Source of the DNA: Acidobacteriota bacterium | Lineage (GTDB): Bacteria; Acidobacteriota; UBA6911; RPQK01; JAJDTT01 | Direction: 5' to 3' | Assembly: GCA_965263035.1 (NCBI GenBank) | Contig: OZ253580.1 | Coordinates: 1,856,001 to 1,920,000, forward strand | Length of the DNA: 64,000 nt | Shown: one piece after another, positions 29,714 to 33,091 of the stretch | Numbering within the stretch: position 1 is the first letter of the stretch | Layout of the letters: every line of letters begins with the position of its first letter | Notes under the pieces: model-generated | The model's database searches: none | Told to the model about the DNA's origin: nothing | The model's input: only the letters and a program-made list of their open reading frames with translations | Position numbers and translations under genes: made by a program

Positions 29714-29876
29714 AGGAGCCTGCGCCGCAGAAATTGATCTACTGCGAAAGTGGTAGAATCGGTCCATATTTCCCCGATTTCTCGGCGAATAGCACAACTA
29801 TGCACCTCAAAATCGAGAAAATCTGGCCTCGATTCCCCACTTTCTCGCTACGATCATTTCTACCGCGCAGACTCCT
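29714..29876 (+). mobile_element. 163-bp MITE, copy 1
   Basis: AGGAGCCTGCGC...GCGCAGACTCCT imperfect ~25-bp TIRs; near-identical to four other copies. Confidence 0.9.
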
Positions 29877-30861
29877 AGCCCATTGAATTTCGACCTCCAG
29901 ACACTCCGAGGGGATCTCTCCGGCGGTATCACCTCCGCGGTGGTGACGCTGCCGGTCGCATTGGCCTTCGGCGTGGCGTCGGGCCTGGGGGCGGCCGCGG
30001 GCTTGTACGGCGCTATTGCCGCCGGCTTTTTCGCGGCTCTGTTCGGCGGAACGCGGGCACGATTCACGCGTTGCCCGGGGTGGTGGCCAACATCAATGGC
30101 AGCGCCTTTGCCATCGCCTCCCTGACGCTGGTTGTCGTATCGATCTGGCCCCGGCGCCTGGCGAGACTGCTGCCCGCTCCCCTGCTGGCCCTGGTTGGCG
30201 GGACACTGGTGGGCCTGTTGTGGCTCAGTGACGCCCCCGTCATCGGACCCGTGCCTGGAGGCCTGCCGGAACCGCAGTTGATCTTCCCCTCCGCCGGCTT
30301 CATGGCGGGTGCCCTCCAACCCGCGCTCATTCTTGCCCTGCTCGCCTCCGCGAACAGCCTTCTCACGTCCCTGGTCGCCGATTTCCCTAACTGGCGGACA
30401 CCACAATCCCAACCGGGAACTGGTGGGTCAGGGGATCGGCAACATGGTCGCGGGACTCATCGGAGGCGTGCCCGGAGCCGGGGCCACCATGGGAACCGCC
30501 ATCAACATACGGGCCGGCGCCCTGACCCGGGCATCGGGGGCCTTTTCCGCGGTGGTCCTGCTGGTGTTTCTATTGGGTCTTGGCCATTACGTGGAGCCGA
30601 TTCCCCGGGCCGTTCTCGCGGGCCTCCTGATCAAGGTCGGCTGGGACATCGTCGACTGGAATCTTCTCACCCGGCTTCACCGCATCCGGCGCGAACACGC
30701 GGCAGTCATGCTGATCACGCTGGGCCTGACGGTGTTCGTCGACCTGGTGACCGGCATCGCCATCGGGCTGATCGCCGCGGGAATGACTCACGCACGGCAG
30801 TTGGAACGCCTGGAGATGGACAGCGTCGTCTCGGTTCCGCTGCTGGACCAGACCTTCTTTT

Positions 30862-30990
30862 GGGGCCTATATATCTGACTTGACGTCAGCACACAGTTCC
30901 GGCGCCACGCTCGGCCCACTGGCCCACGTTTCGGCACCCAGGGCAAGAACCCCCGCCCTGAGAATGTTCAGGGCTGCATTATGGTCCCTG
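30862..30990 (-). ncRNA. Putative TnpB omega-RNA overlapping the tnpB 3' end (boundaries uncertain)
   Basis: Minus-strand stems cagggc/gccctg, ggtgcc/ggcgcc with inner ggcc/ggcc, ctgac-gtcaa-gtcag; position typical of TnpB omega-RNAs. Confidence 0.55.
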
Positions 30991-32033
30991 TCCATTCTGA
31001 GATCACAGGCTGAGCAGCGATACGTCTCGCTCCTTCCCGGTCGATTCCGGGCACCACAACGGTGACAGTCCTGCGACGTGTATTGTGGGTTGACTTCCAC
31101 GAACTCCCGACCGGCCCACTCTGCCTTGTACTGGAGTTGATTCCGCAGCAGCCCCCATTGCTGTGAGAGCATCTCCCGATTCAAGCCCTTCGTCGTCATC
31201 CCCTTGATGTCCAACTTCTCCACCGCAATCAGTCCGTTCTTGCGGATGATCTCAGTGGTCTGCCGGTGACAGGAATTCCGGTTGCGTACACCCTCCCGGA
31301 AACGCATTCCCGCCAACCGGCGGACTCTCTTCTTCCTCCGGTTCGACCCCCGCCGGCACCGAGCAATCTTTCTCTGTTGCCGCCTGATCTCCGCCCAGTC
31401 CCGGGTGTTGCGTTCGATTCGTTCACCGGTGGACATAACCGCCCGCTTGCGGACACCCAGGTCGATTCCGACCGCCGATGCACACTTCGGCAGCGGCTGC
31501 TTCTCGACTTCATAGGTCAGATCCACGTACACCCGATTCGGCTTGCGGACGATCCGCAACGCCTTCAGTTCACCATCGGGCAAGGGCCGGGCCGGGAACA
31601 ACCGAATCGTCGGAAAGCCCTGGGGACGGATGGCGTATCCCCGGGCCCGCTTTTTCACCATCGTCGTCCTGGGATCGACGATATCAATGGTCTCCATCCT
31701 GGAGATCGGTCGGAACCGGGGATACCCAGGATCCTCTCCCGCCTTGGAGCGCCGGAAGAAGGCCTGGAAGGCTGGCTCCAAGCGAAACAACATCCCCCTC
31801 TCGGCCTTGACGGCAATGGCCCCGAGCCCGTCCGGATCGTTTCTCCGCTGCTGCGTCAAACCCCGCAACTGGTCATACAGAGTCACGGATTTCTCATCCT
31901 TCTCCCAGGTGTCCTTACGCTCCTCCAGGGCGGAGTTGTAGAGGCGGTTCAAAACTGATCTGATCCAATCCAGACGCCGAAGCCCTCCCTTGGACATCTT
32001 GGCTCGGCACTGAAATGTTGTGTGAACCTTCAC
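30867..32033 (-). CDS. tnpB: RNA-guided endonuclease TnpB
   Basis: LYNSALEER, GYPRFR, VGIDLG (RuvC-I D), IAVEKL (RuvC-II E), TSQDCHRCG..CSAC zinc finger, DRDHNAALNI (RuvC-III D). Confidence 0.95.
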   Translation of the reverse strand: MKVHTTFQCRAKMSKGGLRRLDWIRSVLNRLYNSALEERKDTWEKDEKSVTLYDQLRGLTQQRRNDPDGLGAIAVKAERGMLFRLEPAFQAFFRRSKAGEDPGYPRFRPISRMETIDIVDPRTTMVKKRARGYAIRPQGFPTIRLFPARPLPDGELKALRIVRKPNRVYVDLTYEVEKQPLPKCASAVGIDLGVRKRAVMSTGERIERNTRDWAEIRRQQRKIARCRRGSNRRKKRVRRLAGMRFREGVRNRNSCHRQTTEIIRKNGLIAVEKLDIKGMTTKGLNREMLSQQWGLLRNQLQYKAEWAGREFVEVNPQYTSQDCHRCGARNRPGRSETYRCSACDLRMDRDHNAALNILRAGVLALGAETWASGPSVAPELCADVKSDI

Positions 32034-32504
32034 AGTATATATGTTAATACATCTGCATGACGATCCATCAAGTTAGATATATAAGCCCCCTTCTTTTCCC
32101 TTCCTAAGGGACCGTCCGGATCGGACCCCTATTTGGCTCGAGTCGGTCTGTTGGCGCTCAAGGGCAGCTTTACTGTCGCCTCCTCCAACCGATTGGCCCG
32201 CGCGATCAGCGCCGACATCAAGGATCACGATGTCGTCATTTTCGACTTCTCTCAGGCCACGTACTTCGACGACAGCGCGGCCATGGTGATCAAGAAGCTG
32301 ATGGACATCGCTCGGGAAGAACAGACTGGGCTAATCGTGATGGGCCTCTCCGGCTCGGTTGCGAAAACCCTTCAGGCCCTCGCCGTCTTACGGGAGGTGC
32401 CGGAGAGTCGAGTCGTTTCGACGCTGGACGAGGCGCGGCAGGCGGCAAAAGATCTCCTCGGCGGTTGACGCCAGCGAGTTCGTCTTGGACAGCCGGCGCG
32501 TGCT

Positions 32505-32667
32505 AGGAGCCTGCGCCGCAGAAATTGATCTACTGCGAAAGCGGTAGAATCGATCCATATTTCCTCGATTTCTCGGCGAATAGAACAACTATGCACCTCA
32601 AAATCGAGAAAATCCGGCCTCGATTCCCCACTTTCTCGCTACGATCATTTCTACCGCGCAGACTCCT
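32505..32667 (+). mobile_element. 163-bp MITE, copy 2
   Basis: Same sequence; flanks CT|...|AG; end overlaps the ferritin stop codon. Confidence 0.9.
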
Positions 32668-33091
32668 AGAGGGGCCAATCCCGGAGCAGCCGCTCGGTTT
32701 CTTCCGAGTGCGTCGTTTCGTCGCGCACGATGTCTTCGAGCTGGACCACCAATCCCTTGTCACCCAACTCTTCCGCCTGTCGGGCCCGCTCCGTATAGTC
32801 CCGCGTCGCCTTCTGTTCGGCAACCAGGACCTGTTCGACCATCTCCTTGTTCGTGGCAGCCGCCGGAACCGGCCGGGGCACCGTGGCCGGCTCGCCGCCC
32901 AGGGCCACGATCTTGTTCGCCAGGTACTGCGCATGCAGCTGCTCGTCGGCCACTTCACCGAGAAAGAACTGAGACAACTGCGGCCTGTAGGGACCCGTCG
33001 TCTTGGCGGCGTAGGTCAGATATTGGATGATCGCACCCAGTTCTCCGGCCAAGTCTTCATTCAGATTCTCGATCATCTCCTGCTTGGTCAT
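32666..33091 (-). CDS. Ferritin-like (bacterioferritin/Dps-like) protein
   Basis: LNEDLAGELGAIIQY, DEQLHA, LGGEP, EQKA..Y, DETTH diiron motifs. Confidence 0.88.
   Translation of the reverse strand: MTKQEMIENLNEDLAGELGAIIQYLTYAAKTTGPYRPQLSQFFLGEVADEQLHAQYLANKIVALGGEPATVPRPVPAAATNKEMVEQVLVAEQKATRDYTERARQAEELGDKGLVVQLEDIVRDETTHSEETERLLRDWPL

Follow-up and report, generated by a model that had tools for sequence, protein, structure and literature searches.

What moves a tnpB gene that lies between terminal inverted repeats (TIRs), and where on its RNA does the scaffold stop and the guide begin? TnpB proteins are mainly known from IS605 and IS607 elements, whose excision is scarless. The question is raised by a stretch of 64,000 nt from the genome of an Acidobacteriota bacterium (assembly GCA_965263035.1, contig OZ253580.1, positions 1,856,001 to 1,920,000 of the forward strand; hereafter the window, to which coordinates refer). 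At 30862-32089, on the minus strand, a 1228-bp element consisting of tnpB and a putative guide RNA (omega-RNA) interrupts the gene sulP. Our data suggest that this is a non-autonomous member of the IS1595 family and that its right repeat is at the same time the end of the omega-RNA scaffold, so that the guide would be taken from the host DNA beyond the element. We give this explanation as a whole a probability of about 0.7. Taken by itself, the architecture, i.e. the repeat within the scaffold and the guide outside, is probable, and the target-adjacent motif (TAM) and a homing function are less so.

The tnpB element and its IS1595-type ends

According to the open reading frame (ORF) list the element encodes a single gene, tnpB (30867-32033, minus strand, GTG start), whose product of 388 aa carries the RuvC residues D/E/D and a CxxC..CxxC zinc finger. 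It matches the Pfam families OrfB_IS605 (PF01385, 53 bits) and Cas12f1-like_TNB (PF07282, 88.9 bits), as well as the NCBIfam model guided_TnpB with 194.2 bits (cut-off 100). The more specific models IS200_TnpB (155.6 bits, cut-off 425) and IS607_TnpB (110.5 bits, cut-off 350) are not reached; descent from IS607-type TnpBs, an idea that came from the G-rich candidate TAM described below, was dropped because the IS200/IS605 model scores higher. The closest natural relative with a solved structure is ISDra2 TnpB (8bf8, E 1e-27, residues 31-368 aligned), whose motifs GVDVG, GTEHL and DRDENAA align with GIDLG, VEKL and DRDHNAA here. In this alignment D191, E272 and D350 face the D, E and D of ISDra2, which we take to be the catalytic residues. 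By its profile score, RuvC triad and zinc finger the ORF is a TnpB, for which RNA-guided cleavage is predicted.

Two further observations concern the protein. The best-scoring PDB match is 9yyg, an 'AI-designed RNA-guided nuclease' (E 5.8e-37), ahead of the natural ISDra2 TnpB. Moreover, this copy of the element (c0) lacks five residues, KGLKK, that its paralogues have after VEKL (31150-31200, residue ~281), a shorter form with the same length as ISDra2 TnpB at that place. The stretch or part of it was found in twenty public sequencing runs, and in contigs of three of them (X3, X15 and X16) 15 nt are inserted at 31175 or 31184.

The initial annotation had described the minus strand as an 18-nt arm (32089-32072) followed by TTGAT (32071-32067), 33 nt (32066-32034) and the GTG codon (32033), with a far end at which the 3' region closes in ...GACGTCAA (TCAA at 30883-30880) before the second arm (30879-30862); all of these positions are correct. 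A repeat search of 30600-32350 returned these arms as the longest inverted repeat and extended them to 22 nt, 20/22 of them complementary (91%), whereas a 22-mer with two mismatches is expected only ~2e-4 times per 1.7 kb by our own rough estimate. Since the repeat spans 30862-30883 and 32068-32089, TTGA and TCAA are complementary parts of it, as the same annotation had allowed when it cautioned that they might be plain TIR sequence; it was also right in noting no canonical IS605 subterminal hairpins. The left TIR (left end, LE; 32068-32089, minus strand) thus contains the TTGA of TTGAT, and the right TIR (right end, RE; 30862-30883, minus strand) contains TCAA together with the 18-mer that had been proposed as a guide. 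In elements of subfamily A, to which c0 belongs, the tnpB stop codon (30869-30867) falls inside the right TIR.

A feature that had gone unrecorded is a perfect 8-bp direct repeat, CTTCTTTT on the plus strand, which abuts both arms as a target-site duplication (TSD), with one copy on the RE side (30854-30861, AAAAGAAG on the minus strand) and one on the LE side (32090-32097). The outer limits of the element, 30862 and 32089, are based on this TSD, on the TIRs and on the points at which the similarity between copies ends. A promoter and terminator scan gave one promoter-like site (minus strand, 32063-32034) against 0.5 expected from shuffled sequences, which is uninformative.

The interrupted gene, sulP (29883-32468, plus strand), encodes a Sulfate_transp domain up to 30861 and a STAS domain from 32133. 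When the element and one TSD are removed in silico, one open frame of 316 aa runs across the junction. Seven same-genus genomes match the left flank. In two of them, L188 and L189, the site is uninterrupted and CTTCTTTT is present once; another reads CTTCTTTG there, and the other four have diverged further at the site.

Searching the element against its own 6.2-Mb genome with blastn revealed around ten further tnpB-only copies or fragments, whose similarity ends at the outer limit of the repeat. The same ends were found again on these copies, and those with two ends are flanked by differing perfect 8-bp duplications. Two copies of subfamily B, c3 and c4, are 99.84% identical (2 differences in 1244 nt) and lie at different sites with different TSDs. 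Among the tnpB elements with TIRs and TSDs are elements of five genomes; in all, 21 tnpB elements have perfect 8-bp TSDs and three have TSDs with one mismatch.

A likely source of the mobilizing enzyme is present in the same genome, in which DDE_Tnp_IS1595 is matched 17 times, each time above the cut-off. A pattern scan recovered 11 complete insertion sequences (ISs) of 1509-1763 bp with ends starting GGGGATTATAT and perfect 8-bp TSDs, and the transposase at locus L021 scores 178.7 bits against the NCBIfam model transpos_IS1595 (cut-off 75). The tnpB elements start with GGGG(A/C)TTATAT. Counted by eye, those of subfamily B share 23/27 TIR positions with the 1762-bp IS, and the ends of subfamily A (c0) share 11/12 of the outer positions with the autonomous IS1595 elements but only 15/26 overall. 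Presumably these ends resemble the consensus of the ISNwi1 group. No IS1595 transposase was detected by tblastn in any of the tnpB loci searched. Given IS1595-type repeats, an 8-bp TSD, the absence of a transposase from the tnpB loci and near-identical copies elsewhere, the element is, as judged from its sequence, a tnpB-only, non-autonomous member of the IS1595 family, which an IS1595 DDE transposase would move in trans. The duplication length fits, as IS1595-family elements usually carry 8-bp TSDs according to a passage in PMC8101967. Conversely, an element of the ISDra2/IS605 type is ruled out by the 22-nt TIR, the perfect 8-bp TSD and the fact that none of 24 LE flanks ends in TTGAT; a passage in PMC13565253 describes IS200/IS605 elements as having neither TIRs nor TSDs.

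With respect to the helper ISs, the 1762-bp autonomous element carries extra sequence, i.e. ~700 bp between the transposase stop codon and the right end (L021:1410-2125). Short derivatives resembling miniature inverted-repeat transposable elements (MITEs) were not found by end patterns in the genome, although the internally deleted copy c7 escapes those patterns.

Related elements occur in a few lineages. In a scan of one genome per species 26 loci were found, mostly in metagenome-assembled genomes (MAGs) of Acidobacteriota, with one Binatia MAG and one alphaproteobacterial MAG; most share the end type and the 8-bp TSDs, and at least nine end types (A-J) can be told apart by their inner repeats. 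The best 80 metagenome loci mostly encode TnpBs of only 31-40% identity. Among these 80, a looser search found both IS1595-type ends in L081 alone (54% identical protein) and a right end in L082, where the contig is cut, and the stricter finder for TIRs plus TSDs returned 0/80. In a sample of the phylum, 2/401 genomes matched at E <= 1e-80, namely the genome itself and one of the same genus; as at most four candidates were scored per genome, this sample gives no basis for copy numbers. We therefore regard the clade as narrow.

The omega-RNA scaffold and the probable start of the guide

The 3' end of tnpB and the right repeat were aligned across 21 sequences (138 nt, ending 8 nt past the repeat), and a structure proposed by eye was tested on this alignment. 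Over the whole structure 96.5% of cells are paired, compared with 85.5% in shuffled alignments, and 13/25 pairs have changed on both sides, a number matched by 0/500 shuffles; controls in which the structure was slid along the alignment pair in only 34-46% of cells. The corresponding 139-nt RNA of c0 folds at -70.2 kcal/mol (z = -5.63). No Rfam family matches 30600-32300 at E up to 5. Covariation and folding energy together indicate a structured omega-RNA that shares sequence with the 3' end of tnpB and extends to the end of the transposon.

Stem 1 (CAGGGC / GCCCTG, 30939-30960, minus strand) is paired in 97.6% of cells and has three double-sided pair changes, and stem 2, a long bipartite hairpin (30901-30938, minus strand), is paired in 95-98% with eight such changes; both are well supported by the alignment. 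Downstream of a conserved GAACTGT lies stem 3 (30868-30895, minus strand), with the 5' arm TGTGTGCTGAC, the loop GTCAA and, as its 3' arm, the inner 16 nt of the right TIR. A hairpin built in this way is the predicted fold in 19/21 sequences, the others being L046, with a shorter stem 3 hairpin, and L032, a mutated copy with a different fold. Where the TIR arm differs between subfamilies, the 5' arm has changed together with it and the hairpin is kept, and the several G-U pairs in the stem point to pairing as RNA rather than as DNA.

The outermost 6 nt of the right TIR, GGCCCC (30862-30867, minus strand), are predicted to be the last scaffold bases and to form the 3' arm of a pseudoknot with GGGGTT (30953-30948) in the loop of stem 1. 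One pair changes from G-C to A-U in three sequences, and the next from U-G to A-U or C-G. Tested alone, the pseudoknot is paired in 93.7% of cells against 89.1% in shuffles, with a covariation score of 0.179 against 0.102, and 0/500 shuffles reached either value. Because the loop lies within the gene, it also specifies protein, i.e. G-V codons that become G-N, G-T or G-A where the TIR end differs. Accordingly, GGGAAT replaces GGGGTT in the loop where the TIR ends in ...AATTCCC (subfamily D), and GGGACT does so where it ends in ...AGTCCC (subfamily H), despite the altered residues. On its own, the pseudoknot has modest support.

Since the inner part of the right repeat serves as the 3' arm of a hairpin and its last 6 nt as the arm of the pseudoknot, the most likely end of the scaffold is the last base of the repeat, in which case TSD and flank would make up the guide. 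Comparison of the lineages thereby supports one of two proposals of the initial annotation, that of a scaffold extending through the TIR by a hairpin ctgac-gtcaa-gtcag, with flanking host DNA as guide. We propose that the 3' end of tnpB and the entire right repeat encode the scaffold, that the outer 6 nt form a guide-proximal pseudoknot with the loop of stem 1, and that the guide starts with the first base outside the repeat. The predicted guide of c0 (30842-30861, minus strand) would comprise the TSD AAAAGAAG and the next 12 nt of sulP, its length being assumed from other TnpBs, and over the bases compared it agrees with L188 and L189, in which this site of sulP is uninterrupted.

Insertion sites and a candidate TAM

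With a guide outside the repeat, a TAM would lie next to the left end, in front of the target as it was before insertion. Directly 5' of the LE-side TSD of c0 is the candidate AAGGG (32098-32102, minus strand). The insertion sites of 24 elements, read in the orientation of tnpB and drawn from 40 distinct right ends plus L046, comprise the 21 perfect TSDs and the three with one mismatch. Position -1 is G in 23/24 of them compared with 5/17 autonomous ISs, which have C in nine (Fisher p = 8.6e-6), and the first TSD base is A in 23/24 compared with 8/17 (p = 5e-4). The two groups also differ at -5, with A in 15/24 versus 2/17 (p = 0.0014), and at -2, with G in 15/24 versus 4/17 (p = 0.025). On the right side of the tnpB elements the mirror positions give only 10/24 and 8/24 (p = 9e-5 and 8e-6 against the left side). 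The distant lineages in which the left end is present (L046 and L049) have kept G at -1 and A at -5 but not the first TSD base.

DDE transpososomes have two-fold symmetry, and a symmetric complex should not give a one-sided motif, whereas such a motif is expected of a TAM that precedes the target in the empty site. The one-sided and orientation-specific pattern ANNGG|A is therefore likely to represent a TAM followed by a preferred first flanking base, as far as the aligned sites can tell. In the mechanism we envisage, TnpB and its omega-RNA would cut the uninterrupted sulP allele, in which AAGGG precedes the target, and the occupied site would be spared as CCCC takes the place of the TAM at the junction. 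Repair of the break from the occupied copy would then keep or spread the insertion, by the same logic as for IS605 and IS607.

RNA data from public runs bear on the scaffold. Depth was taken from contigs of two metatranscriptomes of one study (X15 and X16) and of two runs of unrecorded kind; regions lacking cover and small-share runs were left out of account. In two bins covering 30856-30959 it amounts to 26703 and 13167 in X15, 7260 and 5137 in X16, and 1170 and 746 in X1, whose kind is unrecorded. In contrast, the body of tnpB has a depth of 27-107 (X15), 30-203 (X16) and ~358 (X1), and the flanks 6-11 (X15) and 0.6-14 (X16). The interval of high depth coincides with the region from stem 1 to the end of the repeat, which hints that the scaffold is abundant as RNA, the repeat included.

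The other proposal of the initial annotation was that an IS605-derived tnpB has a scaffold ending in ...GTCAA and the 18-nt right repeat as a fixed guide, which with TTGAT as TAM would target tnpB-less copies or related transposon ends. TCAA is the end motif of ISDra2, and it does adjoin the arm in c0. So does TTGAT, given as the ISDra2 target motif in a passage of PMC13565253, and the RNA peak ends within a few bases of the repeat end, as a guide made of the TIR alone would give; yet contigs branch where copies diverge, so a fall in depth at that point is expected anyway. This proposal is highly improbable. Besides the TIRs and the TSD, the flanks speak against it, as they end in G rather than TTGAT. 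TTGA/TCAA is confined to subfamily A and is replaced by other letters elsewhere, being absent from that place in subfamilies B, F, G, H, I and J, and the 18-mer takes part in a hairpin and a pseudoknot whose pairing persists in lineages of differing sequence. Nor does the genome offer a target: there are no sites of TTGAT plus the 18-mer at up to three mismatches, and the 18-mer itself occurs eight times, in seven cases as the end of a subfamily A element, always preceded by TCAA, and in one case at an unrelated place. A smaller shift of the boundary, by which the scaffold would also take the first TSD base or bases (the near-invariant A, perhaps AWW) and the guide would start 1-3 nt or a whole TSD further out with the TAM shifted, is unlikely but less so. 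It would account for the A that follows the repeat in 36/40 right ends (counted by eye) and in 23/24 TSDs, and passages in PMC10711439 describe the nucleotide flanking ISXfa1 on the right as scaffold and Fanzor right-end element RNAs (reRNAs) as reaching ~15 nt past the TSD. On the other hand, TSD positions 4-8 are variable, which makes a whole TSD in the scaffold unlikely, no pairing partner for the A was found, and the first flanking base is C, T and T in L046, L049 and L082, with G kept at -1 in the two of these that have a left end.

It could also be argued that tnpB is inert or decaying cargo, with hairpins that are mere leftovers and with ANNGG|A as nothing but a preference of the IS1595 transposase that moves the elements. 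Many copies are indeed broken (c2, c6, c7, c8, c9 and c10), no helper IS with the inner repeat of subfamily A was found in the genome, and the autonomous ISs also favour AT-rich 8-mers flanked by G/C. Still, we consider this improbable, in view of intact ORFs of 386-391 aa with catalytic residues in several subfamilies that are 75% identical, of RNA pairs preserved by compensatory changes even at the cost of a protein change, of a motif found on one side only (23/24 versus 10/24 at the mirror position) and of the very high depth of the scaffold in RNA libraries, the latter with the caveats of contig depth.

Several points weigh against our explanation as a whole. A contig depth is a sum over all copies and organisms; it does not allow the parts of a gene to be ranked, shows neither ends nor strand, and is compatible with a guide inside as well as outside the TIR. 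Only 2/6 pseudoknot pairs change on both sides, which 173/500 shuffles equal; with its partner slid by -1 the pseudoknot still pairs in 80% of cells owing to the G-run, and subfamilies E, G, I and J have one mismatch each. The motif was derived after exclusion of 17/40 right ends whose left end was not recognised, and two of the counted sites, in L017 and L026, are orthologous. No autonomous IS with the inner repeat of subfamily A was found in this genome, the seven element ends that match the 18-mer are without exception those of tnpB-only elements, and a different helper transposase might account for the site motif by its choice of targets. Finally, a passage in PMC13565253 holds that cut-and-paste DDE elements gain little from TnpB, the association being rare and its benefit doubtful.

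Assuming that the guide does lie outside the repeat, it is tempting to speculate that TnpB activity decides which cut-and-paste DDE insertions survive, so that only copies with a TAM before the left TSD would be able to cut the empty allele and be restored through repair, although we regard this as rather doubtful. In a bolder form, TAM-bound TnpB would steer the IS1595 transpososome to its sites. If true, the motif would be the first footprint in natural populations of a TAM-filtered persistence of a bacterial DDE transposon.

The surroundings of some insertions deserve mention. Apart from the insertion, the frame of sulP shifts twice, from 0 to 2 near 30100 and back near 30300-30380, and the part at 29883-30400 is either a decaying pseudogene or affected by assembly indels. 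On both sides of sulP (~29714-29878 and ~32530-32700) lies a ~165-bp repeat with long terminal inverted repeats. Each query gives 187 blastn matches in the genome, with 95-99% identity in many cases, and the repeat looks like a very high-copy MITE. A copy of this repeat appears to be inserted in the tnpB copies c2 and c6, as judged from a shared peptide read-through. Contigs that join 30751 to 32202, omitting 1450 nt, were found once in X1 (depth 49.6) and once in X3 (depth 2); they may stem from a relative within that sample whose sulP allele is uninterrupted, and as the intervening content is not known, they were not counted as an empty allele. The orthologous site just mentioned is occupied by c7 (L017, genome positions 1409900-1411150), of subfamily A, and by an element of subfamily D in another species (L026). 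Both flanks are 80-88% identical and the TSDs differ (AAACCCAA versus AAACGAAA), while the right end of c7 is 96.8% identical to that of c0. Possibly the insertion is old and gene conversion later took place between copies, or the site was occupied a second time.

Relation to known systems

The benefit of TnpB to bacterial cut-and-paste DDE elements is debated, and tnpB-only IS1595 elements offer a compact natural test case: their genomes also contain a clear family of helper ISs, insertions are numerous and dated, orthologous sites without the element are available, the right repeat apparently acts as both transposase site and scaffold, and the insertion-site motif is unlike that of the helper ISs. 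A G-ending TAM (ANNGG) for a TnpB of 388 aa, if it is one, may also interest genome editing.

DDE-borne TnpBs and Fanzor scaffolds that absorb the TIR are already published. Passages in PMC10691335 (Altae-Tran et al. 2023) describe DDE-associated TnpBs with inverted terminal repeats and solo TnpBs that share ends with transposase-bearing elements, and a passage in PMC13565253 names ISL2, IS630 and IS1031 as DDE families with TnpB. IS1595 is absent from the main text of PMC10691335, to which this statement is confined, its supplements listing six DDE branches. Of nine papers naming both TnpB and IS1595, none deals with such elements by title and abstract, though an earlier supplementary listing is possible, and a literature search found no paper combining Fanzor and IS1595. 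What the present elements appear to add, on the strength of comparative sequence analysis, is a bacterial right repeat that doubles as guide-RNA scaffold, empty orthologous sites and a one-sided insertion-site motif.

As in the DDE-associated TnpBs of PMC10691335, in the parts concerned, tnpB lies between DDE inverted repeats with its 3' end within 250 bp of the transposon end, and as in the solo TnpBs described there, the ends are common to transposase-bearing elements. In contrast to the former, the host family is IS1595, and none of the elements found here combines transposase and tnpB. With ISDra2 TnpB (8bf8, 8ex9 and 8h1j) the protein shares the order of domains and the catalytic motifs, and the omega-RNA likewise overlaps the 3' end of the gene. 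Unlike ISDra2, the element lacks a Y1 TnpA and a TTGAT target, has TIRs and a TSD, and its predicted scaffold ends at a DDE-type repeat.

From the sections of PMC10711439 (Yoon et al. 2023) on IS607, ISXfa1 resembles our elements in its G-rich TAM (GGG depleted there, ANNGG proposed here), in a fixed first flanking base and in a pseudoknot, but it is mobilized by a serine recombinase and has neither TIR nor TSD. Pseudoknots linking a remote loop with the bases immediately ahead of the guide are documented for TnpB reRNAs in the same source, which also reports TIRs as part of the scaffold in Fanzor elements. A close parallel is found in the Fanzor1 and Fanzor2* elements of eukaryotic cut-and-paste transposons as described in those sections, i.e. 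in non-autonomous elements with TIRs and TSDs that carry only a nuclease, with a scaffold that includes the TIR, as predicted here, and a guide past the transposon end. The differences are a bacterial host, a TnpB of canonical size, a predicted pseudoknot where Fanzor1 reRNAs are reported to have none, and a variable 8-bp TSD that is more likely guide than scaffold. The tnpB-only IS1595 elements would represent a bacterial parallel to Fanzor elements.

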